A model generated the notes under the pieces. That model was not told the DNA's origin. It searched no databases and saw nothing but the letters and a program-made list of their open reading frames with translations. A program made the position numbers and the translations under genes. This document shows positions 1 through 38,832 of a DNA stretch of 64,000 nucleotides, piece by piece. The first letter of the stretch is position 1; every line of letters begins with the position of its first letter. Origin of the DNA: a virus; IMG/VR virus record IMGVR_UViG_3300045988_183866, one strand, 5' to 3'.

Positions 1-2
1 TG

Positions 3-18000: not shown

Positions 18001-19646
18001 CTGGCGAGAGCGTAACGCTTAACTTCACCTATGTGGTAGTTACCGCTGATGCTCCTAAGGTCCTGAACGCTGCTGTTGTGAAAGACCCGACACCGCCTAT
18101 CGATGTTGAAAAGGATGCCGATAAGTATATTGCTAAGGTGACGGATGTTGTGACCTACACCATTACGGTGAAGAACACGACAGACGAAACCGTAAACGAT
18201 ATCACTGTCGCAGACCATAACAACTTTGCGGGTGATGTTACGGCTGAGAGTTCTAACCGCTATACCTATAACGGAGACGGTACTTGGACTATCGGTCATC
18301 TGGATGCCGGTGAGGCTCTTGATATCGTTTATACCTATACGGTAGAGACGACCGATGAGAGCGTTATGGAAAATACCGCAACCATTAAGTACACGCACGA
18401 TGGCGAGCAGTATAATATCCCGTCCAATACAGTCGATGTGAAGAAGCCTGATGATGGCGTTGTCACCATCTGGAAGTCTGCAAACAAGACTGTCGCAAAG
18501 CCGGGTGAGACTGTCACCTATACCGTAACGGTACACAATGGTAAAGACCACGATATTCAGAATGCTGCTCTGACTGATGAGAATAACTTCTCCGGAAGCA
18601 TTTTCGCAGTGGAAGGCGCTGGTTATCACTATGAGAATGGTGTATTCACCATCGACACGATTCCTGCTGGCGGCGATGTGGTTGTCCACTACGCTTATAC
18701 TGTCGGTATCGCCGATGTGACTACGCACATCCTCGAAAACGTAGCGACGATTCATGTTCCCGGTACGAACCCTGAAGACCCGGAGAATCCCGGACAGGGT
18801 AAAGACCCGACGAAACCGATTGACCCTGATACGGATATTCCGTCCAACAAGGTCGATGTGGAAGTTCCGGGTTCCGGCACGGAAACTGACATCCCGCTCG
18901 AAAAGAGCCTCACGATTGTGAAGAGTGCTGACAAGACGAAAGTCAATGTCGGTGAAACCATCAATTATCGTGTGGTAGTAACCAATACCGGTGAAGTAGA
19001 CCTTGTCAATGTAACCGTAAAGGACAACAATGATGGCGCAAGCCATATTGAAGCCCAGAACGGTGATGGATATACTTACAATAGCGCAACGACAACGTTC
19101 ACTATTGCTCGTATCCCTGTTGGCGAATCCTTCACTCTGACCTATTCTTATGTTGCCGTTGACGCGGATGCCGGACACGATGTCATTAACGTGGCTGTCG
19201 CTAAGGCTCCGGGTCAGAATCCCGAAGACCCCGAGAATCCGGGTCATGGTAAGGACCCGTCCAAGCCGATTGATGAAGATGTAGAGAAACCTTCCAACGA
19301 GGTGAAAGTCCCTGTTGTGAAACCCTCTACTCCCACAACGCCTGACGAGCCTAAGCCGACTCCGACTCCTGACAACCCGAAGCCCACTCCGACCCCTGTT
19401 CCTACTGAGAAGCCAAAGACCCCGCCGATTGGCTGGCTCGATATCTTCAAGGTAGACGGCAAGCCCTTCTCCCTCTTCTCTATCTTCACGAGCAACAAGA
19501 AGACGGGTATCGGATTTGCACAGAGCATTGTTGGTCTGGTAGCAATGGTTGGCATTGGCGTCGCTGCTCTGGTGGTAGTAAACCACAAGCGCAAGAAGGA
19601 CGAAAACGACAACAAAGATAACCATAAGGATGATTCCGCTGAATAA
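3..19646 (+). CDS. Giant repetitive cell-surface adhesin, 5'-partial (>6514 aa). The N-terminal half contains a Gly-rich segment and ~90-aa modules with a K-x-Y-G-x-x-D-P motif (MBG/YDG-like). The C-terminal half is an array of DUF11-like 'conserved repeat' domains. The C-terminus is a Pro/Thr stalk, then NKKTG, a TM helix and a Lys-rich tail.
   Basis: The frame is open from nt 3 with no stop upstream of the ATG at 102, so the gene begins outside the window. Periodic motifs TIxPRPxxV...KxYGxxDP occur through aa ~2100-3500. Repeats LTIxKSADKxxAxVGDxxxYTITVxNtGN..L.NVxVxDTNNFxG occur from nt ~10650. The protein ends ..TSNKKTGIGFAQSIVGLVAMVGIGVAALVVVNHKRKKD. Minus-strand ORFs over this span are shadows. 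Confidence 0.9.
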   Translation, partial: SSGGSHGPFLKTTIYGSKSLRIRANGGYTYEEAMVNPDIKHRTPTNWPYKFSVGQTIPAALTHSNGQVAFDDIWVQYDGCASDFTDAGLGKLYEPTVDGRSGTNNFYLAGSGNFVMNQIGHLPLIGVGGANKASPQEMQLCVNTLMWISQRKQCEVCAADQADQQMTHFVHRVNAANAKKILTALANGGSYWYPLSDCYELMEDLDLTKLGFDSTTWKPIKNFTGHWNSKYFDVKVPKDGALFDNTTGDLGAYRTGDGNDWNLGTDRLKGWDTVFKDSGNSSPSVRTTGIARIYGKLSDAKLFNDGQVHEGYTVHIRYEDNTALLQEGDDFSCVVNNVDQYCISNLPCIYVGGKTILRARVYDKAGNEVTKYGPIVAKVPPHFWNDCETVPLELLTIEATPIENYRYWEGETTKVLEGSGIIYNQPISNESVTWYYRVVDLRNTSNALSDWVKIGHYGQFTTEDGAVTGIIKTPVFHDGNDGVYNYPHSSVDVQLQMLAYTGNAIQLRTDYEVEGKTYSTIDPGVITPEASGIIQIEERPMSMTQAPNQRVMTQDEATFVFETDYWKGLDDKGYSYDVQYKDPYDDDWQTLATSVTFGGTYTLNTVDNSQVNKVDIEAHTVDTLAKGKETASMIHDNKWLPADFWRPDGFTDQQCAQKHTTITLTLHAADYNWSGYYFRIVASYRFNEKRTKVENSYSAIGDADNAGFDTSRYGLLQVDAPFVSATMLEARALMMQEHNSEGDATGDFGQNYWSVETTQDQVDNWNASRGDSNNPLISDKNVAVYTTTITFSPSKLTESGNRILIPVLQWGFQDDLNSESTDYKPVINPININGYANNGNGLTTENYKDWANIVKTRYDINTDDSSVMKQVVDAIETEHSGSPFGKFTAYITIDDIKPVEDTMLNGQPFDINSAYAKWSITTSLHIESATNPMDFGTEHFYFQCKPYLEYIRGYNSTKLKSQTITNTLAHNFDYVNGGIDEDNTDTGAELWLDYNISIHANERNLVSCGVDKHSIFMYPELTIEAPNGLRYIMSRYQIVNEFPYGKHRDTSRTVFNQSDHLSVNLGTQYRGQMTTVTRYDMNGNPSQIDVQGKTMADLGISLDERGYLDKNNEDYAPYLDHGYALWSDYSYPKEIWQWFWRNAIQYHCYDMEEFDGTNEQVFFYIDEKNVRAADKSFKANDGNNPTSSWTAPFDATYQIDLWGAGGGNASMTDGISGNSGSHTIITADIKEGTTLYFVAGGAGGGGSTGSGSGGSGGYNGGGSGGVGAVFYDCYKGGGDPDHSYHSNSPIGFGGGGGATTVAFGLIGDGQLKNYGDGSPMFGVAGGGSGAAIISGNGYTTRGVGGSGSNNSGQRYHCALKEDKVFSDGYEYHHGDICGWTYSGTHSSDIKMQREDEEGYNNTLHENGGGSGWQSASTDGALRGSSYAASVGTNLDNGNIIIKANVTGANQLNDGAGSGIGQAGRAKIKVVDLNKRLYRRVGKNAMDIGFEDANECTPTRAKVMLTVANKMYDGNQLTVTAHVVWDGDTDAGIDEQEILRGVNITYSNNESPNITYPTNATTDSKKKPLVRTGSYTATATYTGKYEVTFCWENTKPGKTYVVRGESTTPDEYVSGNGNVVYFDIYPRPLHLYSYDNNKIYDNISTAKVSDIKIKAATADSGIVHGDTVALNSTLAYGYYCENYAPEDFAKTSFRESIHTGLHSIKTVTILELINNPFDNYYIASEDFTGTINPRPLYVHSQYHDVNKYKWNYDGNSNDIGNGKYLTDTTVYDNQNVTIEQAYEMILAGKQENIDITRYTKTEQDNYQNTVVNPNNIKVYDSYYNANIGEEGQGNIYIDNITNYDSVELNAQTYVGSYADSNAGEQLTGYDANGDNGVIKEDRYNGLSTNTIRHLPYSVKYSYSTTTPQVGQKMTVTIAVTNKDTGYGLAAQNNYVAPVAIQNLRLKSRFAGNGPITLKSTNGIRMNQQGTEFYIDTIPVGGTVNIEFEYTVQDIDDTNALVRDIEQNNEMYLVNNNYNDYYIADKTFSGGIYRTTLRAQVKSVSTTYGHGFKNVKLPYADDVYYWNKGSDSWLTMEGLVEDHKTAAQDDEKLDLKAKKTNNYQSKFVYNVVPSETTDAGSYPVSYIGLNEFNYDVLKNYVVTEDPGSIEVKPRKIMISVDESQKIYGTTNPFFNSTFKVLGTDDQGNELDVSDENNWTVLGDDATVDYNNMHLIGNDTIGNVVEVVNGASRTALAFKNGTSNLPYLTTATQSSDVIYQTDVPEEECAYCLEKYNEMHKGHEHYHDDDHPHTHVPVNGYPVSVNENTGYGNTLGIKTVTNSEGQVVSNYELVYESNVLKVHPRLIRIAALDATKAYGGTEPALKWTVDGEIIKPTSEMLGIKAVRDSGENVRDEGYTIRISYEKSTASNYIVETNDAKMTITPVPLTIVFGNQERYYGEDNKNDYTLTVVGLKHGDTADVALKNNDGATAKVLETAKNTLSDYINLTYNKYTDVGSNYLYGDKSYCEEHTILVPRENADGGYNYTIANYTPGVLTIKPRPMLLEVTGWQKELGDADKVQDFTLTDMITHNSVNGQQKLGAGSRITDASVVVNPDKVPIVFNLVRAEGEEVGSYPVYSTPQDRQIGNLAANDQKQLELDNPNYDFEYRYANDLIVKRQGLMITVDDKVRYYGDRVNRFYDGSTDYTYHVFKVENGEAVEITAEEAGINTNSFTFTHLDTQTSSSGTYKDCISLSGVHSTIYDDDDITITAGNLTIIPRPVSVIAEDNTKVYGDADPELKYTLHDGVRGEDGNYYIEYANGPVLTEKEGADVPVQPGDLEGTGVTREPGEDVWTGEHSFGKAYAINANDISPVSKDGITNYVITMENGNFTITPAELVVTVKGGYSKTYGEENPAFDADITGFKRDDTKETVLNGELGFATLCFDLSDAGKYIVTAGNNNEDAVNPDCVVLEDGEEHIGSTFEVKSNTNFEKNYVIRYVNGDITVNPKELIVRIDHKVKTYGTADPAFTFHYEDNAGNVIGLIDPENSPLNVELYRTKGENVVRGDVTAADSLNKWGTTLYDGDYLISAKYDTNNKNYAVTVYDGSLKIIPATLTVTVDGGYKTTYGDEIPEFTYSITGFVGRDVKDETGTGIKDDESKVSGTATMYCNDNAGNPVTNKTKVGNYPINYDRQQLVADNSNYKFIYVGGDLTIGKKPIHVKADDQQKVYGEKDPDPLTWTITDPEELVNPGDEDFFDITTKRPGADTDDGEQVGKYPITIDGTDPSGNYEIITTPGTLTIVPATIVVTVIDDEKYFGEDNPTPNVTITGYKRGDTIDDIGGKDALKTKTDAEKWSPVGEYPVSAKDSTFHNPNYDFVYIDGKLTVKPLIINIKAEDDRKTYGDNDPDKFNVSYTLTNEKDEPYTPDKDLRDYIDRALNLDAARVPGENVRTENPGYSIVPTYTEVDNIEIGTVTPGHFFIDPREVTIIANSAEKVYDGTPLTEPGYTYAPELVDNDLLGIHDKMDSVTVTGSQTEVGSSKNVPSDAVIINTEDGSGSNANYIIKYVDGTLTVRDKEIVSIEKSADRERATDYDVIRYTITVTNATSHDLHNVIVKDTNNFVGVPVLSQANGVTYDAEKGEFVIAEISHLRDETHTNAVTFTYTYTVDPTDHGTNNNDILENNAKITDMKVVESYTENPDGSTTPNYTEPNKDWLVETPDVDVEIIRQNLTIEKSADKTEAGVGDVVTYTLKVTNTGNTKLENVVVKDTNNFMGEPVENTKLHFGYRVNDDGTWTITSLGVGKSVTITYKYTVVADDLANGKLDNIATATIPAREDPTIPEKPVDSNEVIVPLYYKHLTIVKSADRDHAYPGEVVKYQVTVTNDGTVDMTNVTVSDDTNALGMFIVSTGDGYTYNPETRLFTIPALNVGDSVTLNYLYIVQNGDPETIINVATAHAPKNPDTEIPGDKDIEEPSKPVEVDVLRDELTIVKNADKSFVDMNGNDTTVTYTLTVKNSGNTKLTNVIVTDTSNGNGTVEYTGDLMYDGNGKWMIPELNAGESVEITYIYTAVAEDMNLDNGNIVNTAVAEGKNPDNKTVTSDPDTETVHVGEVPDRDIRVVKTSLESSVMIGDTIHYTITVTNNGTMTAQNVVVRDFNDGIGEINAASSDKYTYDAATHSFTIAEIAAGEVVEIPVTYTVQEGDKGTVNNAAVEIPEIPEIEKKADKQTVVVGEVVTYTITVTNTTNETKTNVEVKDTNNFTGVITPAENTDVVSYIGDKVWNISSIGAGESVDIVYTYTVMNEDAPNTMLVNNAEMTYVTDSGKVKIPSNEVDIPVIPETPTPEHVGPTVVKQADKAIANIGDTVHYTVVMHNNDTVDYVNAALHDKNNFNGVITNVKNGTLESASAGSAVIKVGTIPAGKTVTVEYDYIVLNTDAGKGQDTYNELKNVATLHYWFADENQTPENEKTKPSNEVTVKVPGSDVPVPVNPPEGKLKVEKFVDKKSASVGDMLHYTVKVSNVGDGELKNILVEDFFDGHGKLNYIPAVGVVVNGDGTYTINKLPAGTFMELRFTYVIVEGDEPEVLNAAVVTTPPVDPPLEPTKTADKKFAFVDEIVTYTISVYNPDTKAKTNVTVKDTNNFVGSINAANTDKYTYNGDSTWTIPEIGAGETIDITYTYTVQSNDEKLLENKADVTYSENGDTVKLDTPTVDVVVPDKGTVSIHKEADKKMAKPGEVVTYNVTVTNNKGFDVHDVVVTDANNFAGEITGVDGADYTFENGEFHIAEIAAGASVTLTYTYTVEIGDVPTQILENIATADVPGTNPEDPNNPGHGKDPNKPIDNDEKIPSNPVDVEVPGSETETKIPDLVLTKSVDKNEAVVGDTLNYTITVKNNGKGDAENVTVKDFFDGKGTLNFVAMDGVTDNGDDSYTIASVKAGESVTLNFTYVVVDGDAPEVLNAAVITTPEPPTDIVKSADKHIAKVNEIVTYTITVKNNSKDTLTNLLVSDTNNFKGEIEGKDGKGYTYNGDKTWTIATLESGKSIDITYTYTMQASDETVIENTADVRYSHNGTDYNIPSNPVDVEKPNDGVVTIFKTADKTKAEPNEVVTYTVTIHNGKDYNIKNVRLTDANNFAGKIEGVDGAGYKFINGEFVIDKIPAGGDAVVHYTYTVQIADVPTKILENVATAHVPGKNPGDPDEEIPSNKVDVEVPGDGTHVDVPEGKLEIVKSVDKTEAKVGDTLNYTITLTNVGGQAVKNAVVKDFFDGNGVLNFVPMDGVTDNGDYTYTVANVEKGQSITLRFTYTVVAGDAPMVLNAAVVKDPTPPVDIEKTADKHVAMVDEVVNYTITVKNTTDKTVTDLLVSDTNNFTGAITSKDNAKYTYNGNHTWTIPSIKAGESIDILYTYTVKTTDPSTLVNEADVRYTTDDGEYVIKADPVEVVVPKDGEVTIVKSGDKKIAEPGEVVTYTVTIHNGKAHDITNVVVSDSNNFAGTITGTNGVGYKFVDGHFVIDKIAAGADAVLTYTYTVQIADVPTHILENVATAHVPGTNPEDPENPGHGKDPDKPIDPDTDIPSNKVEVEVPGSEVETEIPEISITKSVDKPTAKIGDTLNYTVTVKNGGNADAENILIKDFFDGNGTLNFKAMDGVTDNGDNTYTISTVKAGESVKLRFSYVVVEGDEPLVLNAAVIKDPTPPVDVEKEADKHIAKVDEVVTYTISVKNTTSEPVDNVTVTDTNNFKGEIKAENADKYTYNGNKTWTIPTIAAGETIYITYTYTMQAEDATVIENIANVTYSKDGTDYNIPSNPVDVEKPDDGVVTIRKAADKTKAEPGEVVTYTVTVHNGKNHDIENARLTDTNNFAGEIVSVDGADYTFENGEFTINKIPAGGDVVIHYTYTVEIADVPTQILENIATIHVPGTNPEDPNNPGHGKDPEKPIDPDTEIPSNKVDVEVPGSETETEIPVIEITKSVDKAEAKVGDTLNYTVTVANKGKVDAENVVVEDFFDGNGTLNFVPMDGVADNGDNSYTISTVKAGESVTLNFTYVVVTADAPKVLNAAVVKDPTPPIDVEKDADKYIAKVTDVVTYTITVKNTTDETVNDITVADHNNFAGDVTAESSNRYTYNGDGTWTIGHLDAGEALDIVYTYTVETTDESVMENTATIKYTHDGEQYNIPSNTVDVKKPDDGVVTIWKSANKTVAKPGETVTYTVTVHNGKDHDIQNAALTDENNFSGSIFAVEGAGYHYENGVFTIDTIPAGGDVVVHYAYTVGIADVTTHILENVATIHVPGTNPEDPENPGQGKDPTKPIDPDTDIPSNKVDVEVPGSGTETDIPLEKSLTIVKSADKTKVNVGETINYRVVVTNTGEVDLVNVTVKDNNDGASHIEAQNGDGYTYNSATTTFTIARIPVGESFTLTYSYVAVDADAGHDVINVAVAKAPGQNPEDPENPGHGKDPSKPIDEDVEKPSNEVKVPVVKPSTPTTPDEPKPTPTPDNPKPTPTPVPTEKPKTPPIGWLDIFKVDGKPFSLFSIFTSNKKTGIGFAQSIVGLVAMVGIGVAALVVVNHKRKKDENDNKDNHKDDSAE
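6440..10650 (+). repeat. In-frame array of ~90-aa MBG/YDG-like modules (KxYGxxDP motif) within the giant adhesin gene
   Basis: Recurring peptides include KIYGTTNPFFNSTFKVLG, KAYGGTEPALKWTVDG, RYYGEDNKNDYTLTVVG, KVYGDADPELKYTLHDG, KTYGEENPAFDADITGF, KTYGTADPAFTFHYED, KVYGEKDPDPLTWTITD and KTYGDNDPDKFNVSYTL. Confidence 0.7.
14370..19000 (+). repeat. Tandem coding super-repeat with ~1110-nt period and about 5 copies. Each unit holds three DUF11-like domains plus a PGTNPEDPENPGHGKDPxKPIDPDTxIPSNKVDVEVPGSETE linker.
   Basis: The near-identical linker peptide PGTNPEDP(E/N)NPGHGKDP recurs at nt ~14370, 15475 (degenerate), 16540, 17650, 18760 and 19210. Peptides between linkers align at ~75-90% identity, e.g. 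KSVDKxEAKVGDTLNYTxTV.N.G..DAENVxVKDFFDGNGTLNF. Confidence 0.85.
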
Positions 19647-19660
19647 GCGGTAAAACAATA

Positions 19661-19697
19661 GAGCGGTGGTTCGAAAGAGCCGCCGCTCTTTTTTTTG
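19661..19697 (+). terminator. Rho-independent terminator after giant adhesin gene 1
   Basis: GC hairpin gagcggtgg-ttcgaaaga-gccgccgctc followed by T9. Confidence 0.7.
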
Positions 19698-19729
19698 CGT
19701 AAAAAACTTCTAATTTTCAGAATAATTAT

Positions 19730-19760
19730 TGACCGTTGCTGCAAAGTAAGTAATATAATA
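19730..19760 (+). promoter_or_regulatory. Promoter of the conserved-spacer family (copy a): TTGACC-gTTGCTGCAAAGTAag-TAATAT
   Basis: Matches a 7-member family with -35 TTGCAA/TTGACA, a 16-17 nt spacer containing TTGCTGCAAAGTAG, and a TAtAAT -10. It lies upstream of giant adhesin gene 2. Confidence 0.55.
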
Positions 19761-20073
19761 GATATAAATACAGCATCAAATTTCTCAGAACAAATAATAG
19801 CTATAGTCAAGCAGGTTTTGCGTTAATGTTTCAACCATCCATGTCCATACGAAATATGAGAATGCGTTCATGGGTGGCATTTTTGTGCCAAATTTTTTGA
19901 TTGACTTTTCTGTCTTTTTGTGGCATATTGTAAATATGCAATTTGATTGCTTGTGTTTTGATATACTTTCTTATCTACAATCGAGGCTGCACACTAGGGA
20001 GTAGGTAAGGGTGTATATAAATCCGGCTGTGGTAAAACCACAGAACACTCACATTATTAGGAGGGCAACTAAC

Positions 20074-23000
20074 ATGCAGAAACCTCGTAAGCGGTTTTTG
20101 AGTGCGATTGTCGCCGTAGCAATGTGCCTGTCTCAGTTTGCTCCTGTCACTGCTTATGCAGTGGAGAGCGCGAGTGGAATCACGCAGAGTGAAGAAGCTC
20201 CGAAGGAAACTGATGCGCTCAGCACTACGACAACAAACTCCGACTCTTCCGCTACTACTCCCGCGCCGAAAAGCGATGTTACCGACACAGCAAGTTCCGC
20301 GTCCAGCGACACTTCTGTGACGAGCGATGTTTCTTCTGAGGCTACAAGTCAGGCGGGGTCTGAAACGACCACTGCCTACGCAAACAGTGCTGCCTCTGAT
20401 ACTGGTGCAAGCACCAGCACTTCCAGCGAAGCTTCTACCACTGGCAGCATCAGTGAAGCAGCACAGGCATTTATCGATGCGGCTAACGCCCTTGTAAGCC
20501 GTAAAGATGAAATTCTGACTGCTGCAAACAACTTCGGTCTTGCAAGCAAGGCATGGCAGGCTGACAAGGAAAACGCGGTTCTTGATGCGATGGTCACGCG
20601 TCGCACTGAGGAACTGGATGCAGTTTATGACTGGGAGCCCATTGAAGACATGTATTATTCTCTGAGCGAGGATGAGCAGGTCGCCGAGCCCGTCATGAAT
20701 GCATACCTTGACATGTCTGACCTGTATCTGCAGGTTTGCGACCGTCAGGAAAACCCCGTAGACAACAGCGGTGCCAGCGCGTTTGATGGCGGCGGTTCTA
20801 CGACTGTCATCGGGGACTATCAGGCAATCACCGCTGCTGAGACTGGTAAGCAGATTGCCGCAGGCACTGGTATTCAGTATACCAAGATTAGCGGTCAGGA
20901 GAATGTTATTCGCATTCTGCCTCAGACTGTTACCTACACCTACGGTGACTCCTTCAAGTCTAAGGGTCTGACCATCGAATACAGCACTGCTGATTCCCGT
21001 ACTCCTCAGGAAGTCCAGAAGGATATTCAGGCAGCTATCGACGGTCTGAGCTTCATCATGTACGCTCCTGCTGATGGTGACGGCCAGAATCCTACAGACA
21101 TTCATTGCAATCACGGTACTTATCCGACTTATGTTGATACGGGTGCCACAAGCGTTACTGTGAATGGTCTAAATTACACCATCATTGACGGTTCCAACTT
21201 GGATTCTTCCAAGAACATCCGCAATGACACGGGCGTGACTATCAACAAGCGTCAGATTTTCATTGTCCCTCATACCACTTATGTTACGAAGGGCAATACC
21301 ATCAGCCAGATTAACTACACCGTTATGGATACCAATGGTGGTCTGGTTGACGGCGACCTGCTTCCTGCGGATGTTCTGACCACAGAGAACTTTGATAAGG
21401 ACACTACCGGTTCTTACAAAATCATCTTAGGTTCCTCTGCGAAGAGCAACACGAACTACAACGTCGACATCCAGCCTAACACCGGCGATGTGTATGTTGT
21501 CGTTTCCGAAAAGACTCTGACCCTGACTCCCGTATTTGTCTTTAAGGGCAATGATGGCGTACAGACGACTGGCAGCAAAGCCACTCGTCAGTATGGTCAG
21601 CAGAACCCTCAGGTTGACTTCGTGATTACCGGCTGGTCTGATACTGATAAGACGAATTTCGAGTATAAGACCAATAATGAACACAAGTCCAATGCGGTTG
21701 CTCTGAAAGAAATGCTTGGTCTGAGCGGTGAACCCACCGTTGTTCTGCCCAGCATCACCTCTGCTCCCGGTGGCTATACTGTTACAATCGGCAATATCCA
21801 GACGAATGCGCCTATCAATGGTTATAACATCAACCTTGCTACCGCAACGTTTGAAATTACCAAGCGTAATGTAACCATCACCAACAATCAAATTGATGCC
21901 ATCTATGGTGAGGCTGAAAAGGGCAAGAATTCCACCATCACCTTGGACGCTGTTGCTTATAACGGTGCTGCTCAGGCAGTATCTTCTGAAGCACGTATTG
22001 TTACCGGTAAAGACATCACCGCCGATGACGGTGTGAATAAACTGGTCAGCATGGTTCTGACAACTCAGCGTCAGGATATTGACAACAAGAATGTTGGCGA
22101 ATATCCGATGACCGTTGAAGTTCCTCCTGCATGTACTGCTTACTATGACGTCAAGGTCATCAACAGCAAGTACATCATCCATCCTGCAATGCTGACTGTC
22201 ACTCTCGATGACCTGTCTGCAATGTATGGTGCTGCTCGTTCCGGCAAGATTAAATCCATCGAAGGTTTCAAGCTGAACGATACACAGGCAAGCATCGGCT
22301 TGACCGAGGACAAGCTTGGCTTTACTATGGTAGATGCGGCTGGCAACAGCGGCATTCCTACAACTGCCAATGTCGGCGAGTACAATGTTACCGCAAGCGT
22401 TATGGGCGCTTCTCAGGAGCGTTGGTCTCCTGATTGGGACATGAAAGCCGATGGTAAGGACTATGACCGTTTCGACAACTACCTCGTTCGCTTCGTTGAC
22501 AGCAAGCTGACCATCACCAAGCGTCCTATCGCCATCAATGTGATGGGTGGTCAGACGAAGGTTTACGGCGACAGTGATGCCAAGGGCGGCGTTGCCTTTA
22601 CTCTTGACCCCGTCAATGGCAAGGGTGGCCGTGTTGGTTCCGACTTTGCTGGCTGCGTTGTGACTCGTGAGGTCGGCGAGACTGTTGGCTCTTACGCTTA
22701 CAGCGATGCTCAGTTCCAGACTGCTGAAATCGCCAAGAACTACGACATCACCTTCAATGCTCCCGATAAGTACACTATCACCAAGCGTACTCTGACCATC
22801 ACCGTTCCGAACCGTGAGCGTCTGTATGGCGCAGAGAATCCCAGCGATGCCGACATTACCGGCGCACTGGAATACAAGAACTTCGCAAGCAACGATGAAA
22901 TTGGCATCCATGATACTGTCGCTTCTCTGGGCGGCACTGTCACCATCAAGTATGGCGTTGATAATACCGTTGGTAAGCTGACTGGTGTCGGTACCTATCC

Positions 23001-26000
23001 TATTGTTGTTTCCGGTTACACCAACCCCAACTACAACATCGTTTATACCGGTACTTACAGCGATGGTACAAGCGGTACGCTGACTATCAATGCACTGCCT
23101 GTCACCATCAAGGGTACTACCAACAGCGTCCGTAAGTACGGCGTTGCCGGTAAGAACACCCCCAGCTATGCGCTGTATGACGAGACCGGTTCTCAGGCTA
23201 TCAATGTGGTTGACCCGCAGGGCAGCCCGCTGAACATCCACATCGACCTGACCAAGTGGGAAGACCCCACCACGGTTGTTGGTAACTATGAGGCTACCAT
23301 CTCCTATGATGAGAACCCCAACTACATCGTAACGATTGCTCCGCAGGCTACGTTCCAAGTCACCGAGGCTGATGTCTCTGTCACCTTCAACGCACTGCAG
23401 ACTACTTACGGTGAGAAGAAGCCCGATACCATCGCCAAGGAAGTTTCCGTCAATGTGAATACCTCCGACGGCACTCAGATTTACCATGATGGCGAAACCG
23501 TCAACATCAAGATGGACGGCAAGGATGTTTCTCTGGGCGTTGTTCGTATCGCCGTTGAGGCTACTGCGAACGCTTCTGGTTTGTACGATGCAGGTTCTTA
23601 CAACCTGACCTTCCGTCTGGATAACCAGCCCGCAAACAGCGTTAAGCTGTCTGAGCCCGATGGCAAGAACATGCTGATTGTTCATCAGATGCCCCTGACC
23701 ATCACTCCTCGCTATGGCCTGTCCAAGACTTACGGCGAGACTGACCCCAGCTTTGCAGTCAACGATACTTATGTCATCTTCGACTACAACACCACCAGCT
23801 TCGCAGAGCCCAAGGCCGACTTCGCACAGGCTCGTCTGAGCCGTGAAGCAGGCGAGAACGCTGGCACTTATCCGATTTACAGCGGTAACATCTATGAGCA
23901 GACGATGGCAAAGAACTATCGTATCAGCTTCACCAATGATGTTCGCTTCACCATCAATAAGCGTACTGCCGTTATCAACCTGCTCGAAACCGAAAAGACC
24001 TATGGTGAGACCCTCACTTCTATGAACGTGAAGGATTACATCAAGGGCGGCACTGGTCTGCTGACTACTACTGATGTTCAGGCAGCAGAAGCCGAAAAGA
24101 TTCTTAAGGGCATTACCCTGACTTCCGGTGCAACTTCTGCTTCCGCAAGCGTTGGCACTTATGCTCTGAAAGCTATCTACGCACAGCCTGCCAACTACGA
24201 CCTGACGGTGATTGATTCTACCATCACCATCACTCCTCGTCCCATCACCCTGACTTTCTCCAACTACGAGAAGGATTACGGCGATGCAGACCCCGCATTC
24301 TCTTACAGCGAGATTTCCGGCAACATTTCCAACGATGGTCTGAAGAAGAATACGCTGGAACTGACTACTGGTGCTCTGAGCGGCTCTGTTACTCGCAAAG
24401 CCGGTGAGGATGTCGGTGAATACCCCATCAGCTCTACTCTGTACAACAAGTACGGCAACTACGCAATCACCATCGTGACTGGCTCCGGCACTTCCGTCGA
24501 CGTTGGTTCTTCCACCACTGAGCCCGAGGCTCTGGAAGTTGCTACTCTGACCATCAAGCCCGTTAAGGTCACCTTTACCGTGGCTGGCGGTTACTCCATG
24601 ATTTATGGCGGCACCGTTCCCACGTTCAGCTACACCGTTACTGGCTTGAAGAACAATGACACCGTTGCTTCCGCATTCACTGGCTCGGTTGTCTACAACA
24701 TCAAGAATGCTGACGGTTCTCTGTCCGAGATTCCTGCTCGTCCTGCTGCTGGCGATTATGTCATCACCATGAGTGGTCTGGAAAACAAGGGCGCAAAGAA
24801 CTATGACCCCATCGTCTTTGTTGATGGTTCTCTGCATGTCGATAAGCGCGATGTAATCGTGGTTGTTGACGAAGGCCAGAAGAAGGTCTACGGCGAGGCT
24901 GACCCCGAACTGACTTGGACTGCAACTGGCGACGGCGCTTACTATGTAAGCGAAGATGCAGGTGACCTTGCAAACCTGAAGGTTGTTCGTCCTGACGCTG
25001 GCACCGATGCTGGTGAGGATGTCGGCAAGCACCCGATGATTATCGAGGGCGATGATGTCAACTTCAACATCACCCGCGTAAACAACACCTTCGAAATCAC
25101 TCCTGCTACGCTGAATGTTACTCTGGCTCCCCAGAGCAAGATTTACGGCGATGAGAACCCTGTTCTCTCCGGCGACGACCTGATTTTCGATGGATTCGTT
25201 GTGAAACCCGTCAAGGGCAACACTACTCCTGATGACGCTGGTGTTCTGAGCATTGCAAACCTGACCTTCAACTTTACCGATGCTGAGGGAGCTCCCGCAA
25301 CGGTAGCTTCTCACGCTGGTACCGGCAAGGTCGTTCCTGCAAATGTTGAGAATGCCGCAGCAAACAACTACACCTTTGTTTACGCTCCCGTTGATTTTGT
25401 TATCGACAAGCGTCCCATCACTGTCACTGCTAAACCCCAGACTTCTATCTATGGCGACGATGTTGCTGTTGAAGATTGGTCTGATTACGGCACCGTGAAC
25501 GTTCTGGAATACACTGGTGACACTGCCAAGGCAGCTCTGGTCAATGGTGATATTCTGGAAGGCACGAACCTGTGCCTCGTCACTTCTGCAAGCCATGTCG
25601 GAGGCTATGACATTGTTCCTTCCTTCTCCGGTCTGGCTCACCGCGTCGGTCAGGCTTCTTATCAGGATTATCTGGTAACTGCTATGAACGGCACTTACAC
25701 GGTCACTCAGCGTCCTCTGACTTGGACCATCGGCACTGTTGGTTCTGTCTACGGCAATGAAATGGCCGAACTGAGCAATACCCTTACCTATACTGGTGAT
25801 GCCGATAAGAAGACCATCGTTAATGGCGATGACCTGAAAGCTATTATCAGCATCACTCAGAAGGATGTTGAGAACGCGGTTGCCGAAAAGATTTCCATGA
25901 AGTCTGCTGATGGTGCTGCTTCTCTGGTTGCGGAGAGCGTGCCCGAATCTGTCAAGAATTACGGTGCATACGACATGGTCGGTTCTTACGACAATGATGA

Positions 26001-28017
26001 TTACCTGATTACGATTGTTAATGGCGTTTATACCATTGGCGAGCGTCTGGTCGAAGTCACTGTCACCGAGCCCAAGGATATCGTCTATGGCGATACCACT
26101 AACCCCGACTTTACCGTAAATGCTGTTGCCACCAATGGCGATGGTACGCACGGTGCAGCTGTCAAACCTGATTCTCTGGGCCTGAAGATGGCACTTGTTT
26201 ATACTCCTTTCGAGAACGACAAGACCACCGACAATGCACAGACTGCTCCCTTGACTGCTGATGCAAAGGCGACTCTGACTCCTGATATCGCCAGCGGCGA
26301 TGACGGCGTGGAGAGCGACAGCCAGTTCAAGACCGAGAATGTCAAGAACGCTGGTACTTACACCTACACCGTTACCTCTGATTACGATGCTGCTGTTGAG
26401 CAGAATTACGCAGTAACAATCAATGTCGTCGATGCTGATAAGAACGAAGCCGATGGTCAGTTCGTTATCGCTCGCAAAGACCTGACGGTTACTCTCGACC
26501 CGAACCCCGTCGTCAAGCTGTATGGCACCAAGACGGAGATTCCCGAAATCAAGACCAGCGGTTACGCTTTCGACGAGACTGCTGAAACCGTTAAGCTGCC
26601 TTCCTTCGAACTCATTGTTGCTTCCAGCATCGATGGTATCTTCGGTAATGTTGGCTTGACGAAGGACGCTTTCAAGTATGTTGGCGGCGCTTACGACAAC
26701 TACAATTACCTGCCGACCACAGGAGACATCGAAGTTCAGCGTCTGCATCTTGCCGATGTAGAACCTGCAACTATCGTTGGTACTGTGGCTGACGAAAAGA
26801 CCGGTAAGCCTGTTGAGGTTACCAAGAAGACGACTGATGACCTGAGTGGCCTGTACTTCAACTCTAAGGTTGAAGTTATCGCTCCTAAGGGTTACGCAAT
26901 CGGAACCAGCGATTCCCTGACCGATGCTGAGTGGGCCGAGAAGATGGTCATTTCCGCTAATAGTGAGAAGGTTACTTCTACCTATTACCTGATTGACCTG
27001 AAGACAGGTGCCATTACCGAGATGGGAACTATCACCACATCTGTTGATACCGAAGCTCCTGTCGTTGCTTCTGCTTTCGCTGCCGATAAGGTTGATTCCA
27101 CCAATAAGACCGATTTGCTGAACGAGAAGTTCGTCAAGTTCGAGAGCACCATCAATGTGTTCATTACTGGTGAAGAGACCGGCAAGGCACCTGAGAAGGA
27201 AGACGACAAGAAGGACGATACCGATAAGAAGGAAGATTCCGACAAGAAGGATGAAACCGAATCCGGTACCGAGGAGAAAGTTCCCAGCGAGTCCGAGAAG
27301 ACCGAAACAACCGATGACAAGACCGAAGCCACTACGCTTCGTATTGCTCATGGTAAGCCCGCTCTCTTCACAACCGGCGACGAGACCGGTGATGAAAACG
27401 GTAACGATGTCGTTGCTACTCCCGACGAAAACGGTGGCAAGGATGATACCGAAGACCCCGACTTCGTGCCTGTTGTAAAGGTCAAGGATTCCGTTCCTGC
27501 TATCTCCGCTCTGGATGGCGAGTACAACTCCGGTGTCGCTAAGATTCAGTATTACAAGGTCAATGGTTCTGCTATTGCCAAGAGTGCTGAGGGCGATTAC
27601 ACCTTCGACGAAACCAAGTTCGAGACTGTCAATGTTACAAACATTGATAAGGACAACGGTTACGTTACCTTCAAGCTGAGCCCCGATTGGACTGGTTACA
27701 TTGTGACCCGTACAGTCGATAAGGCAGGCAACTACGGTGATGTTCGGGTAGCAAGTGTTAAGCTGGAGAATCCTCCGGAAGAAAGCAGACCGACTCCGAC
27801 TCCTGTAGTCAAGAATGAACCTGTTCCCACTCCGGCACCTGTTGTAGTCAACTACAAGACTGGCGTTGGTTTTGGCGCAGACATCATCGTTCCTGTTATC
27901 GTTGTTGTTGCTCTGATTGGCGTTGGCGCATTTGTCATCGTTAAGAAGAAGAAGGGCGATAGCGAAGATAAAGCTGCTGAAAAGACCGAGGATAAAACCG
28001 AGGAAAAGAAGCAGTAA
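20074..28017 (+). CDS. Giant cell-surface adhesin 2 (2647 aa). It has a signal peptide, a Ser/Thr-rich N-terminal region and at least 12 MBG/YDG-like KxYGxxDP modules. An acidic K/D/E region and a Pro/Thr stalk precede NYKTG, a TM helix and a Lys-rich tail.
   Basis: The RBS aggagg sits 7 nt before the ATG at 20074 (MQKPRKRFLSAIVAVAMCLSQFAPVTAYA|VESASG). The in-frame ATG at 20011 is a less likely start because it has no RBS. Motifs include RQYGQQNPQVDFVITGW, KVYGDSDAKGG, RLYGAENPSDADITG, KTYGETDPSFAV, KDYGDADPAFSYSEISG, KVYGEADPELTWTATG, KIYGDENPVLSGDD. The C-terminus is ..VVNYKTGVGFGADIIVPVIVVVALIGVGAFVIVKKKKGDSEDK.. Confidence 0.9.
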   Translation: MQKPRKRFLSAIVAVAMCLSQFAPVTAYAVESASGITQSEEAPKETDALSTTTTNSDSSATTPAPKSDVTDTASSASSDTSVTSDVSSEATSQAGSETTTAYANSAASDTGASTSTSSEASTTGSISEAAQAFIDAANALVSRKDEILTAANNFGLASKAWQADKENAVLDAMVTRRTEELDAVYDWEPIEDMYYSLSEDEQVAEPVMNAYLDMSDLYLQVCDRQENPVDNSGASAFDGGGSTTVIGDYQAITAAETGKQIAAGTGIQYTKISGQENVIRILPQTVTYTYGDSFKSKGLTIEYSTADSRTPQEVQKDIQAAIDGLSFIMYAPADGDGQNPTDIHCNHGTYPTYVDTGATSVTVNGLNYTIIDGSNLDSSKNIRNDTGVTINKRQIFIVPHTTYVTKGNTISQINYTVMDTNGGLVDGDLLPADVLTTENFDKDTTGSYKIILGSSAKSNTNYNVDIQPNTGDVYVVVSEKTLTLTPVFVFKGNDGVQTTGSKATRQYGQQNPQVDFVITGWSDTDKTNFEYKTNNEHKSNAVALKEMLGLSGEPTVVLPSITSAPGGYTVTIGNIQTNAPINGYNINLATATFEITKRNVTITNNQIDAIYGEAEKGKNSTITLDAVAYNGAAQAVSSEARIVTGKDITADDGVNKLVSMVLTTQRQDIDNKNVGEYPMTVEVPPACTAYYDVKVINSKYIIHPAMLTVTLDDLSAMYGAARSGKIKSIEGFKLNDTQASIGLTEDKLGFTMVDAAGNSGIPTTANVGEYNVTASVMGASQERWSPDWDMKADGKDYDRFDNYLVRFVDSKLTITKRPIAINVMGGQTKVYGDSDAKGGVAFTLDPVNGKGGRVGSDFAGCVVTREVGETVGSYAYSDAQFQTAEIAKNYDITFNAPDKYTITKRTLTITVPNRERLYGAENPSDADITGALEYKNFASNDEIGIHDTVASLGGTVTIKYGVDNTVGKLTGVGTYPIVVSGYTNPNYNIVYTGTYSDGTSGTLTINALPVTIKGTTNSVRKYGVAGKNTPSYALYDETGSQAINVVDPQGSPLNIHIDLTKWEDPTTVVGNYEATISYDENPNYIVTIAPQATFQVTEADVSVTFNALQTTYGEKKPDTIAKEVSVNVNTSDGTQIYHDGETVNIKMDGKDVSLGVVRIAVEATANASGLYDAGSYNLTFRLDNQPANSVKLSEPDGKNMLIVHQMPLTITPRYGLSKTYGETDPSFAVNDTYVIFDYNTTSFAEPKADFAQARLSREAGENAGTYPIYSGNIYEQTMAKNYRISFTNDVRFTINKRTAVINLLETEKTYGETLTSMNVKDYIKGGTGLLTTTDVQAAEAEKILKGITLTSGATSASASVGTYALKAIYAQPANYDLTVIDSTITITPRPITLTFSNYEKDYGDADPAFSYSEISGNISNDGLKKNTLELTTGALSGSVTRKAGEDVGEYPISSTLYNKYGNYAITIVTGSGTSVDVGSSTTEPEALEVATLTIKPVKVTFTVAGGYSMIYGGTVPTFSYTVTGLKNNDTVASAFTGSVVYNIKNADGSLSEIPARPAAGDYVITMSGLENKGAKNYDPIVFVDGSLHVDKRDVIVVVDEGQKKVYGEADPELTWTATGDGAYYVSEDAGDLANLKVVRPDAGTDAGEDVGKHPMIIEGDDVNFNITRVNNTFEITPATLNVTLAPQSKIYGDENPVLSGDDLIFDGFVVKPVKGNTTPDDAGVLSIANLTFNFTDAEGAPATVASHAGTGKVVPANVENAAANNYTFVYAPVDFVIDKRPITVTAKPQTSIYGDDVAVEDWSDYGTVNVLEYTGDTAKAALVNGDILEGTNLCLVTSASHVGGYDIVPSFSGLAHRVGQASYQDYLVTAMNGTYTVTQRPLTWTIGTVGSVYGNEMAELSNTLTYTGDADKKTIVNGDDLKAIISITQKDVENAVAEKISMKSADGAASLVAESVPESVKNYGAYDMVGSYDNDDYLITIVNGVYTIGERLVEVTVTEPKDIVYGDTTNPDFTVNAVATNGDGTHGAAVKPDSLGLKMALVYTPFENDKTTDNAQTAPLTADAKATLTPDIASGDDGVESDSQFKTENVKNAGTYTYTVTSDYDAAVEQNYAVTINVVDADKNEADGQFVIARKDLTVTLDPNPVVKLYGTKTEIPEIKTSGYAFDETAETVKLPSFELIVASSIDGIFGNVGLTKDAFKYVGGAYDNYNYLPTTGDIEVQRLHLADVEPATIVGTVADEKTGKPVEVTKKTTDDLSGLYFNSKVEVIAPKGYAIGTSDSLTDAEWAEKMVISANSEKVTSTYYLIDLKTGAITEMGTITTSVDTEAPVVASAFAADKVDSTNKTDLLNEKFVKFESTINVFITGEETGKAPEKEDDKKDDTDKKEDSDKKDETESGTEEKVPSESEKTETTDDKTEATTLRIAHGKPALFTTGDETGDENGNDVVATPDENGGKDDTEDPDFVPVVKVKDSVPAISALDGEYNSGVAKIQYYKVNGSAIAKSAEGDYTFDETKFETVNVTNIDKDNGYVTFKLSPDWTGYIVTRTVDKAGNYGDVRVASVKLENPPEESRPTPTPVVKNEPVPTPAPVVVNYKTGVGFGADIIVPVIVVVALIGVGAFVIVKKKKGDSEDKAAEKTEDKTEEKKQ

Positions 28018-28057
28018 CCAACTGAAATAATCTCTACTCCGCGTAAGAGATAACATA

Positions 28058-29797: not shown

Positions 29798-30877
29798 ATG
29801 AAAAATATAATGAGAGTGCTTGCTTTTGTAAGTGCGCTGCTTTGTGTAGGATGTATTTCTACACAAGCGTTGACTTCTCTTGGTGATATTGATATTGATA
29901 TCACTCGTGAGTTCAATTACAAGGACCAAGAAGAAGCCGATGCCAATCCTCTTCCGAAGGAAATTGAGGAGAACGGTAATACCTATGTCCTCGACGAAGA
30001 CAGCGTAGATTATCAGCAAAGGGAACTCAATACCAAGTATCAAGAAACCGTAGAATATACGGATTTGACTGTAAAAGAAGTTCCTCAGACCTATACTGTA
30101 ACGCTGGGCGGAGAACAGTATGAATTGCCGCTCGAAGATGTTCAGTACACGGAAGAGCAAGCCGATATTCCCACAGAAATGACAGTAGAGTATAAGGGCG
30201 AAGACAAGAAACCGAACGCCCCGCAAAACAAGACCTTCACTCTTGATGATGGTACGGAAGTTGAAGGCGTTCTGAAAGAGGTCAATGAAGTCGAGGACAC
30301 CGATACATGGGTCGATTTCACGATTGATGGACAAGTCGTAATTCCGGAAGGTGCCACCGCATATGTCTATCTCGGAAAAGTCCACACATACAATCCCGCC
30401 ACACCGCTTTGGGATGGTTATAAGAGCGATTTGATGTCTGCCATCGGTCTGAACAGTGATTCCTATAAAATCACAGGCGGTAAGTGGACAAGCGACCCAG
30501 TAGCGAGGGCAGAAGGCGGATTCTACCGCACACTGTCTATCTACGGTCAAAAGAATACCGGCAAGAGTTATGTAGCTGTATATGAAACCGCTGCACCTAT
30601 CGAAATCAAGTATGTAGCCAGCGCAACCTATTCCATGTCGCTGCTCAGCATCGGTCTTGATGAATCGTTCGGTAACGCTTCTGAACTTACGATTTGCGCG
30701 ATTGCACACTATGTATTGGAACAGGTAGCTAACGCCAATTTCATTGTAGGCGCTGTATATCGAAACAGACTCATCATGCCCGTCATGGCAGTAATCTTTG
30801 GAATTTCTGCAGGCGCATGCGGTTTTGTTGGGTTCTCTAAGGATAGTCGCAAAGAAGAAGACAGCGAAGAAGCCTAA
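29798..30877 (+). CDS. Lipoprotein / secreted protein with a C-terminal hydrophobic segment and an acidic tail
   Basis: The N-terminus MKNIMRVLAFVSALLCVGC carries a lipobox. The C-terminus ..LIMPVMAVIFGISAGACGFVGFSKDSRKEEDSEEA has a hydrophobic stretch. Confidence 0.6.
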   Translation: MKNIMRVLAFVSALLCVGCISTQALTSLGDIDIDITREFNYKDQEEADANPLPKEIEENGNTYVLDEDSVDYQQRELNTKYQETVEYTDLTVKEVPQTYTVTLGGEQYELPLEDVQYTEEQADIPTEMTVEYKGEDKKPNAPQNKTFTLDDGTEVEGVLKEVNEVEDTDTWVDFTIDGQVVIPEGATAYVYLGKVHTYNPATPLWDGYKSDLMSAIGLNSDSYKITGGKWTSDPVARAEGGFYRTLSIYGQKNTGKSYVAVYETAAPIEIKYVASATYSMSLLSIGLDESFGNASELTICAIAHYVLEQVANANFIVGAVYRNRLIMPVMAVIFGISAGACGFVGFSKDSRKEEDSEEA

Positions 30878-31241: not shown

Positions 31242-32777
31242 ATGTTTTTAGGAATCGTCATTGTCGTATTGTTTGTTTTGTTCGCATTCACATGCTACAA
31301 AAAAGCGCCTCCCACAGCAGCCATCGTTGTGACTGGATTTGGCTTGAAAAAGCCCAAGGTCGTTTGTGGAAAGGGTACATTCGTCATACCTGTGCTGCAG
31401 CGTGCAGATAAGCTGAATATGCGTCTTCTGAAAATTGATGTCAAAACCCCTGAGACGGGTGTCAAGACAAAAGAAGGTGTATCGCTCTGGATTGATTCTG
31501 TTGTAACGATTCAGGTATACAGCGATAATTCTACTGTTCTCGACTCTGAGGTTCAGGCATCTGGTGCAAAGGATGTCAAGGAATATATTACGGGTCGTCA
31601 GCAGTCGGCTATTTCGAACTTCCTTGGCATGGACGAAAAAGGCATCAATGACAAAGTAAATGATGTCTTGCAAGGCAACCTGCGCGAAATCGTTTCGGAT
31701 ATGACGGTTGACCAGATTCTCACAAATCGTAAACAAATGGCGCTGTCAGTAATCGAAAATGCCCGTCCTGACCTTGCAAAGATGGGCCTTGAAGTTGTAA
31801 CCTTCAATGTGCAGGATGTAAAAGACGCCGTCGATGCGCAGGGTCACAATCACGGTGTCATTGAGGCTATTGGTATTGAGCAGGAAGAAGCCGTTAAGAA
31901 ACGTGCAGAGATTGCTCGTGCCGAAGCCGCTCGTGATATTGCTCGCGCAAAGGCTGACGCTGAAATGGCAGCCAATGAAAAGGAAGTTGAAGCCCAGACT
32001 GCTATTGCACAGCGCAACAATGAATTGCAGCTGGCAAAGGCCAAATTGAAGGCCGAGGCTGACAAGGCTGCTGCTGATGCCAACGCTGCAGGACAGATTC
32101 AGACAAATCTTCGCGCCAAGGAAATCAAGGAAGCCGAAGCTGATGCGGAAATTGCAAAGCAGAAGAAGATGGTCGACCTTGCTGCACAGGAAGCCGAGGT
32201 GCAGAAGAGAAAACTGGATGCAGAGGTTCGCAAAGCTGCGGATGCCGAATTGTATAAACGCCAAAAAGAAGCAGAAGCAAAAAAATACGAAGCCGAACGC
32301 GCTGCTGAGGCTCAGAAATTTGCAAAGCAGCAGGAAGCCGAAGGTATTGCCCTTGTAGGTAAGGCAGAAGCTGAGGCTATCCGTCAGAAGGGTATTGCTG
32401 AAGCCGAAGCTATGAAGCAAAAGGCGGAAGCTTACAAGCAGTACAACGATGCCGCTGTCGCTGAAATGCTTATCAAGGTCCTGCCTGATATTGCTAAGAA
32501 TGTGGCTCAGCCCTTGTCCGCAATCGATAAGGTATCTATCATCGGCGGCGATGCATCTGGCGTGTCCGGCGTGTCTGGGAATGTCCCCGTGCTGATGGCA
32601 CAGACTATGCAGACTGTCAAGGAAGCTACCGGTATTGATATGGCCGATATCGTTCGTGCGAACAGTATCAATGCTAAGACCGACCGCAATATCAACATTC
32701 ACGGTTTGCCTGCAATCGAGAAGGCTGATGACAATGCACACATCGAACCTGACGAAAGCGCAAGCGATATAAAATAA
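31242..32777 (+). CDS. floT: Flotillin-like SPFH/band-7 domain protein (FloT/YuaG-like)
   Basis: It has an N-terminal TM helix and an SPFH-like region. A long Ala/Glu/Lys-rich coiled coil follows (AEIARAEAARDIARAKADAEMAANEKEVEAQTAIAQR...), typical of flotillin repeats. Confidence 0.75.
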   Translation: MFLGIVIVVLFVLFAFTCYKKAPPTAAIVVTGFGLKKPKVVCGKGTFVIPVLQRADKLNMRLLKIDVKTPETGVKTKEGVSLWIDSVVTIQVYSDNSTVLDSEVQASGAKDVKEYITGRQQSAISNFLGMDEKGINDKVNDVLQGNLREIVSDMTVDQILTNRKQMALSVIENARPDLAKMGLEVVTFNVQDVKDAVDAQGHNHGVIEAIGIEQEEAVKKRAEIARAEAARDIARAKADAEMAANEKEVEAQTAIAQRNNELQLAKAKLKAEADKAAADANAAGQIQTNLRAKEIKEAEADAEIAKQKKMVDLAAQEAEVQKRKLDAEVRKAADAELYKRQKEAEAKKYEAERAAEAQKFAKQQEAEGIALVGKAEAEAIRQKGIAEAEAMKQKAEAYKQYNDAAVAEMLIKVLPDIAKNVAQPLSAIDKVSIIGGDASGVSGVSGNVPVLMAQTMQTVKEATGIDMADIVRANSINAKTDRNINIHGLPAIEKADDNAHIEPDESASDIK

Positions 32778-38367: not shown

Positions 38368-38594
38368 CCGTTCCTGTCATTGGAAATACCAAGCAGCCAG
38401 TCAGACGAAACATGTAAGGCTTTTGCTAAATTGCATAGCATTTGTGCTCGCGGCATCGTCTTTCCTGACTCCCATTTTTGGATGCAGCGATAGGAACAAT
38501 TCGTGCTTGCCGCCAACTGTTCTTGGCTGTAATTGATTTCCATTCGTTGCTTTTTGATTCGCTTTCCTACCATGGTATCAAAGGTGGATGGCAT
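38364..38594 (-). CDS. XRE-family helix-turn-helix transcriptional regulator (Cro/CI-like, 76 aa)
   Basis: MVGKRIKKQRMEINYSQEQLAASTNCSYRCIQKWESGKTMPRAQMLCNLAKAL is a canonical XRE HTH. It is one of only two minus-strand genes in the island and is divergent from the par genes. Confidence 0.8.
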   Translation of the reverse strand: MPSTFDTMVGKRIKKQRMEINYSQEQLAASTNCSYRCIQKWESGKTMPRAQMLCNLAKALHVSSDWLLGISNDRNG

Positions 38595-38832
38595 AAATAA
38601 CTCCTTTCTTTTTTGTTGTCTATGCGAACAAAAGTTCGTTGCTGGACAACTGCATGTGTGGTATCATGATAACAACAGGCAGTTGTATATTAGTTGTTCT
38701 TTCCGTTTTAACAACCGCTATACATCAGTCAGTGAGTCCCATTGTTATCTGGTAGACACTTATATTTTATCACGCAGAGTATCCCAAAATTCGTACTTTC
38801 AACTATATTGCGACTCGTTCGGAGGATTTTTT

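Follow-up and report, generated by a model that had tools for sequence, protein, structure and literature searches.

The two giant surface proteins encoded in the 64,000-nucleotide stretch analysed here (the window; IMG/VR record IMGVR_UViG_3300045988_183866), termed A1 and A2, end in the same C-terminal module, which to judge from its sequence is likely a sortase sorting signal of non-canonical type, built around [K/Q]-T-G-[V/I]-G. With less assurance, we lean towards the class B sortase (SrtB) encoded on the same element as the enzyme that would act on it. The element matches, feature for feature, the description of Hodor, the conjugative megaplasmids of human-gut Bacillota presented in a bioRxiv preprint of February 2026 (PMC12934698). 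This preprint had already presented the element and both proteins, and predicted their sortase-substrate layout; it calls both giants sortase substrates, leaves sortase A versus sortase B open, and places the motif in Supplementary Figure 9, its main text being without it (PMC12934698). New here are the definition of the motif with its T-G-[VI]-G core, which is our own derivation, the finding that the sortase gene is distant from the adhesin genes and not adjacent to them, and the argument for SrtB with its comparative evidence.

A shared C-terminal module and its conserved core

Translation of both ends confirmed that the two giant adhesins carry the same module, as a preliminary description of this DNA had claimed. 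The A2 C-terminus (translation of positions 27601-28017) reads ...PTPTPVVKNEPVPTPAPVVVNYKTGVGFGADIIVPVIVVVALIGVGAFVIVKKKKGDSEDKAAEKTEDKTEEKKQ before the stop codon (also given as ...PAPVVVNYKTGVGFGADIIVPVIVVVALIGVGAFVIVKKKKGDSEDKAAEKTEDKTEEKKQ) and consists of NYKTGVGFGA, a hydrophobic helix of 26 residues, KKKK and a K/E/D-rich tail. The letters of the A2 string quoted in that description were correct, but the protein runs 14 residues further, and the frame had been taken from 27840, where it contains stops; the reading frame starts at 27841. The upstream giant open reading frame (ORF), with its stop at 19646, ends in ...FTSNKKTGIGFAQSIVGLVAMVGIGVAALVVVNHKRKKDENDNKDNHKDDSAE and follows the same order, with NKKTGIGFAQ, a hydrophobic helix of 24 residues and HKRKK. 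Both proteins therefore show the three-part layout of a sorting signal, i.e. a T-G pentapeptide, 24-26 hydrophobic residues and a basic cluster, beyond which the tail is unusually long and acidic. Across the six-frame translation of the window, KTG[IV]GF was found at exactly two sites, both of them giant-protein C-termini (chance expectation 0.001 after residue shuffling of A1 and A2). The two modules differ in synonymous codons (ACG/ACT, GGT/GGC, GGA/GGT) and share 50% DNA identity in register, which rules out a recent DNA duplication and indicates that their similarity has been kept at the protein level.

C-termini of relatives were gathered via homologues of the A2 C-terminus (including an exhaustive profile search with the A2 C-terminal domain in 1.8 billion representative proteins), homologues of the A1 C-terminus (including a metagenome scan) and the flanks of several matches. 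The counts below cover 19 distinct non-LPXTG modules from both protein families; per-column information was taken from 16 of these, three having been added later. Motifs of the A1 family were NKKTGIGF[A/M/V]Q, NWKTGIGFAQ, PSKTGVG[V/L], PAKTGVGP, PAKTGVGL and IPSTGIEF, and those of the A2 family NYKTGVGFGA, NYKTGVSLFA, QAPTGVGLSA, QSQTGVGIVQ, QSKTGVDLLQ, QSQTGVSIME, NSKTGVGP (two variants), IPQTGITATQ and IPKTGIGFLD. The T and the following G were present in 19/19 modules each, and the next residue was always V or I (V12/I7). After T-G-[VI], G was the most frequent residue (G14/S2/D1/T1/E1), while the residue preceding T was mostly K (K14/Q3/P1/S1). Position 1 of the pentapeptide was restricted to four residues (N8/Q4/P4/I3) and position 2 was not conserved (S, K, A, P, Y or W). 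The consensus is [N/Q/P/I]-x-[K>Q]-T-G-[V/I]-[G], with a helix of about 24 residues directly after it and then a basic cluster.

The preliminary description had proposed that the motif extends beyond five residues, as KTG[IV]GF[AG]. Conservation does pass the pentapeptide, with an invariant [VI] and a G in 14 of the 19 modules, but the F and [AG] were not conserved across relatives, and in some lineages K is replaced by Q, P or S and the leading N by Q, P or I. Lack of conservation in orthologous adhesins, named in that description as the result that would speak against a sorting signal, was not what we observed; the conserved core is [K/Q]-T-G-[V/I]-G and not the longer string.

The surroundings of the motif were far less constrained. 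Helix sequences were wholly different between the A1 and A2 families while T-G was invariant, and both the Pro/Thr-rich linker beside the motif and the tail varied freely among relatives. Long K/E/D-rich tails occurred in the window lineage and some other lineages, and were absent from distant relatives, which carry textbook signals that span 35-38 residues between motif and C-terminus and have short tails of purely basic character. One A2-family member (P0088) has a canonical LPATGD followed by a helix and RRRK at the equivalent position and with equal gene order. Together with the textbook distant relatives, this speaks for a true sorting signal and against a motif that happens to lie beside the membrane by chance.

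The two non-homologous giants of one element also tended to share a motif flavour, N-x-K-T-G-[IV]-G-F in the window and I-P-x-T-G-I-x-F in a related locus (L121), which fits a shared reader. In L121 the giants end in IPSTGIEF and IPKTGIGF and the adjacent SpaA pilins in LPKSGG and LPITGG, so that two separate signal classes are found on one element. The gene order of this locus (1..24818) is a giant of >4,600 amino acids (aa; IPSTGIEF), a radical SAM gene, the A2-like protein (IPKTGIGF) and then SpaA/GramPos_pilinD1 pilin genes.

The sortase and its association with A1 and A2

The window contains a single sortase gene. Its product matched the NCBIfam class B model TIGR03064 (77.9 bits, E 7e-22), below the equivalog cutoff of 153.75, and no Pfam family, including PF04203, at E up to 0.01; PF04203 is present in homologues of 36-55% identity. 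H209, C303 and R312 were invariant in 15 homologues (36-99% identity) and align to the GH, TC and R of Clostridium perfringens SrtB. Top sequence matches among solved structures were the SrtB enzymes of C. perfringens, Listeria, Clostridioides difficile and Staphylococcus aureus. The catalytic core of the AlphaFold model reached a predicted local distance difference test score (pLDDT) of about 85-95, and Foldseek ranks 1-19 were all class B sortase chains (E 1.2e-15 to 7.6e-11), with other classes, including the first class A chain, starting from 8e-7. By sequence and predicted fold, the protein is a member of a divergent class B sortase subfamily. Ahead of its membrane helix lies an acidic N-terminal stretch of about 65 residues that is predicted to be disordered and differs widely in length between homologues.

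Sortase and giant proteins occur together. Each of the IMG/VR contigs encoding this sortase or a 75%-identical sister (7/7) also encodes A2 and A1 homologues, and A1 and A2 were always found as a pair in the loci read. In the sister lineage, the A2 stop lies only ~9 kilobases (kb) from the sortase. No sortase relative above 31% identity, and no host or chromosomal copy, was found among GTDB species genomes. The nearest chromosomal relatives there (24-31% identity) directly adjoin small proteins ending in VSPQTGE, VSPKTGE or KSPQTGAG plus a helix and basic tail; these endings are C. difficile-type class B signals, and the enzyme lineage is therefore associated with x-x-[KQ]-T-G signals. The comparative results thus support a sortase that would read x-x-[KQ]-T-G-[VI].

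Three further contigs were read over limited spans. L119 is a short contig ending just past its A2-like gene, and L118 was read to ~4.3 kb before the contig end; no sortase gene was seen in the portion read of either. L120 (5825..9757 and 15795..17530), which encodes an A2-family LPATGD protein, shows the lipoprotein, ParM, SecY and SecE order of the window. No trigger-factor or SrtB homologue was seen in the 19.7 kb of L120 that were read; ~10 kb of this contig lie outside, so the result is not counted as evidence, and the pattern may reflect co-variation of signal and sortase. More distant sortase homologues (38-51% identity) were found on two large contigs, L042 (345 kb) and L043 (a 127-kb termite-gut contig), beside genes for DNA polymerase III alpha, topoisomerase, sigma-70 and RepB-primase, an indication that Hodor-like elements form a wider family not restricted to the human gut. 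L043 also has a Band_7 gene close to its sortase.

In the window, the sortase gene closes a cluster of SecY, SecG-like, SecE and FKBP/trigger-factor-like genes. The last of these encodes a protein that begins with a lipoprotein-type signal (MKKNAKEILAVISAACIALTAC, followed by GK) and matches only positions 108 to 371 of 410 of the trigger-factor profile; the ribosome-binding N-domain is therefore absent. The protein is probably an exported FKBP foldase lipoprotein with a PrsA-like role and not a cytoplasmic trigger factor.

Proposed mechanism and alternative readings of the module

In the mechanism that we favour, A1 and A2 would be exported through Sec, possibly through the SecYEG that the plasmid itself encodes, and the helix, with the basic cluster as a stop-transfer element, would retain them in the membrane. 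Cleavage between T and G and transfer to a peptidoglycan precursor would then fall to a sortase, most likely the class B enzyme of the same megaplasmid. The sorting-signal part of the preliminary description agrees with the three-part layout, its conservation in related and distant orthologues, and the class B sortase co-conserved on the element; SrtB is a candidate for the cognate enzyme.

Several observations weigh against this proposal. Proline is normally central to sortase recognition, and most of the motif variants do not contain one, which is the main reason for caution. The preliminary description had placed A2 next to SrtB; the sortase gene in fact lies 23.7 kb, or ~25 genes, downstream of the adhesins. 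The window lineage has long tails of 19-24 aa with almost no net charge, and its motif is 50-55 residues away from the C-terminus, beyond the range of 17-45 applied to C. difficile substrates. In some DUF11 relatives the C-terminus is a plain helix and basic tail without x-x-x-T-G. When six variant tails were compared with NCBIfam as longer and shorter queries, no curated sorting-signal model was clearly passed. The best-scoring curated models were Rumino_NPXTG (NF033846), at 8.2 bits for A2, 11.1 for A1 and 17.8 for the P0018 tail (cutoff 23.5, not passed), and LPXTG_anchor (TIGR01167), at 13.0 bits (138-aa query) and 16.0 bits (47-aa query) for A2 and 13.4 bits for A1 (cutoff 15.9). These models aligned to the helix and tail; for the P0018-type tail (PSKTGVG) the alignment covered almost the full model length. 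Matches to Loki-CTERM, Heimdall-CTERM and DLW-39 were weak, covered only the helix and were dismissed, as was a Pfam match of the A2 tail to Psg1, which was below threshold and due to low complexity plus the helix. In addition, the proline-free peptide NVQTG was not cleaved by C. difficile SrtB in vitro, and a class A sortase has also been reported on these plasmids (PMC4155245 and PMC12934698, respectively).

An alternative explanation, which we consider unlikely, is that the module is a sorting signal cut by a class A sortase, either the one reported on the plasmid or the housekeeping enzyme of the host. The invariant T-G is shared with LPXTG, a true LPATG stands at the equivalent position in P0088, the LPXTG_anchor score of the short A2 query just reaches its cutoff, and the preprint leaves 'class A and/or B' open (PMC12934698). 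However, L and P at positions 1-2 were absent in 19/19 variants, class B signals typically have K or Q at position 3, and LPxTGG-type and IPxTGI-type signals coexist in L121 as separate classes. The preprint moreover lists SrtB, and not SrtA, among the few genes that, together with the two giant proteins, are common to both Hodor groups (PMC12934698).

The module could also be a permanent, uncleaved membrane anchor, with T-G-[VI]-G as an interface or helix-packing element and the long tail as a cytoplasmic interaction region; this, too, is improbable. It would account for the conserved, nearly neutral tails of the window lineage, the missing proline of the window motif and the uncut NVQTG peptide (PMC4155245), and it has parallels in related DUF11 proteins with plain helix anchors and in a motif-free 359-aa neighbour (see below). 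It is difficult to reconcile with a T-G that is invariant although the helix has fully diverged between the families, with the canonical LPATG at the module position in P0088, with distant relatives that keep the motif without the long tail, and with a dedicated sortase that is co-conserved. Least probable, and speculative, is a polymerising pilin-type class B sortase (like Spy0129/SrtC2) that would join the C-terminal Thr of one giant to a Lys of the other and build a fibre instead of anchoring to the wall: T-G-V resembles the QVPTGV/EVPTG signals of such enzymes, QAPTGV is present in a second lineage, A1 and A2 are always paired and Spy0129 is among the structural matches, but by sequence and fold the enzyme matches housekeeping-type SrtB (S. 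aureus, C. perfringens, C. difficile, Listeria) better than Spy0129, and the window showed neither a pilin motif nor a SipA-like gene.

Returning to SrtB as the candidate enzyme, a more specific version is a tentative possibility at best, namely a private signal-enzyme pair in which SrtB would rely chiefly on T-G-[VI]-G, with the residues at and beyond the cut site and the beginning of the helix, and tolerate almost any residue at positions 1-3. This would reverse the usual sortase logic and make the adhesins independent of, and invisible to, host sortases; with SecYEG and the exported foldase, the pair would make up a self-contained cassette for surface display, usable in any Bacillota host entered. 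If the signal is real and specific for SrtB, it would explain how a gut megaplasmid of broad host range could display two very large adhesins on varied hosts without the anchoring machinery of the host. The known repertoire would also gain a sortase signal that is free of proline and weighted to residues past the cut site, which could help substrate prediction and possibly orthogonal sortase ligation.

The element, its genes and comparison with known systems

The features of the window that bear on the module and the sortase are compiled in Table 1. The C-terminal 880 residues of A1 comprise repeats of the DUF11/CLIPPER and DUF7507 types and, after these, a Pro/Thr-rich stalk, and A2 carries MBG (YGX-type) repeats. 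A2 begins with a Sec-type signal peptide, as judged by eye, and this N-terminus is kept in the full-length relatives P0083-P0087; that of A1 lies outside the window. According to the preprint, both giant proteins have signal peptides (PMC12934698). Two long stop-free ORFs lie antisense within the adhesin genes (4077..16583, minus strand, 4,168 aa; 21427..28056, minus strand, 2,209 aa) and are almost certainly artefacts of repeat codon composition, not genes. Downstream of A2, a conserved secreted protein of 359 aa (29798..30877, plus strand; L122 11404..12471) ends in a membrane helix and an acidic tail without an x-x-x-T-G motif, so the sorting signal is not found on every exported protein of the operon. 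A FloT-like flotillin gene (31242..32777, plus strand; NCBIfam E 3.6e-77, under the cutoff) follows ~3 kb downstream of the adhesin genes.

Table 1 Positions of the giant proteins, their C-terminal modules, the sortase and associated genes in the window.
Feature	Position	Strand	Remarks
Giant surface protein A1	3..19646	+	Frame open from base 3, N-terminus beyond window start, at least 6,547 aa here
A1 putative sorting pentapeptide NKKTG	19494..19508	+	Conserved core K-T-G-I-G to 19514
A1 hydrophobic membrane-spanning segment	19509..19580	+	IGFAQSIVGLVAMVGIGVAALVVV
A1 charged tail	19581..19643	+	NHKRKKDENDNKDNHKDDSAE
Giant surface protein A2	20074..28017	+	2,647 aa from ATG at 20074; ORF opens at GTG 20011
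A2 Sec-type signal peptide	20074..20160	+	MQKPRKRFLSAIVAVAMCLSQFAPVTAYA; by eye: basic n-region, hydrophobic core, AYA site
A2 putative sorting pentapeptide NYKTG	27850..27864	+	Conserved core K-T-G-V-G 27856 to 27870
A2 hydrophobic membrane-spanning segment	27865..27942	+	VGFGADIIVPVIVVVALIGVGAFVIV
A2 tail	27943..28014	+	KKKK, then K/E/D-rich; GDSEDKAAEKTEDKTEEKKQ
Peptide stretches from the A1/A2 putative sorting motifs			VVVNYKTGVGFGA, FTSNKKTGIGFAQ; PVVVNYKTGVGFGAD, IFTSNKKTGIGFAQS
ParM-like gene	38533..39792		Plasmid-type function
SecY paralogue, plasmid-borne	48589..49929	+	TIGR00967, 330 bits, above cutoff
84-aa membrane protein	49945..50199	+	SecG according to the preprint (PMC12934698)
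SecE	50196..50447	+	PF00584 on the identical gene in L001-L006
FKBP/trigger-factor-like protein	50506..51669	+	Lipoprotein signal ...ALTAC, followed by GK
Divergent class B sortase, 323 aa	51681..52652	+	Membrane helix 69-96; catalytic H209/C303/R312

Hodor genomes are 211-389 kb long, some of them drawn from huge-phage and IMG/VR collections, with a guanine-cytosine (GC) content of 47.1% or 44.6% by group (PMC12934698). Available Hodor genomes number 38 curated and about 1,600 draft ones (Figshare 10.6084/m9.figshare.31385365). They encode a giant protein, 7,309-7,704 aa in length, that is co-transcribed with three neighbours, among them one of ~2,642 aa, and the description includes MBG domains, signal peptides and a C-terminal sorting signal; a class A sortase was reported on every plasmid and a class C sortase additionally in group 1 (PMC12934698). 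The window has a GC content of 46.6%. Many human-gut contigs carry a sortase identical in sequence to its own, the longest of these contigs falling in the 0.2-1 Mb class, and members of the sortase cluster lie on contigs of 344-378 kb. Compared by the description in the preprint, the two agree in the cluster of SecY-SecG-SecE, trigger factor and SrtB, in the giant pair (>7,300 aa and ~2,642 aa) and in origin from the human gut on elements above 300 kb; contigs of 340-390 kb with ~45-47% GC, some of them from IMG/VR, are likewise as in Hodor. A phage origin was considered, as contigs L019-L025 (89-389 kb) are listed as viral in IMG/VR, and was rejected, as the window has plasmid-type genes and the preprint argues for megaplasmids.

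Recognition beyond the pentapeptide has precedent among class B sortases. C. difficile SrtB cleaves between T and G, and its cleavage roughly doubles when two native downstream residues are added (PMC4155245); Bacillus anthracis SrtB needs residues N- and C-terminal to its pentapeptide (PMC11987632); and a reference cited in PMC7900414 gives QVPTGV as the motif of Streptococcus pyogenes SrtC2. Residues after the G may likewise contribute to recognition in A1 and A2. Like the signals NPQTN/NPKTG of S. aureus and B. anthracis and (S/P)PXTG of C. difficile, the module consists of three parts and has K or Q, T and G at positions 3, 4 and 5, and the 19 modules agree with the K/Q-T-G/N of class B signals at positions 3-5 in the proportions given above. 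The Asn-Pro of NP[QK]T[NG] is not retained in the window, which has N at position 1 but Y or K instead of P at position 2, and relatives are degenerate at both positions (NK, NY, NW, NS, QS, QA, PS, PA, IP). Whereas C. difficile signals continue with polar residues (TGD/TGE), an invariant [VI] follows the G here and the helix begins at once. Compared to QVPTGV, the motif of the S. pyogenes SrtC2/Spy0129 sortases, which polymerise pilins, the window has no V-P at positions 2-3 and shares only T-G-V (A2) or T-G-I (A1), and no NCBIfam model of the QVPTGV class was among the matches of the tails at E up to 10. The two systems are nevertheless alike in T-G-V, in a helix that follows directly and in an enzyme of class B fold, with QAPTGV as a motif of the second lineage.

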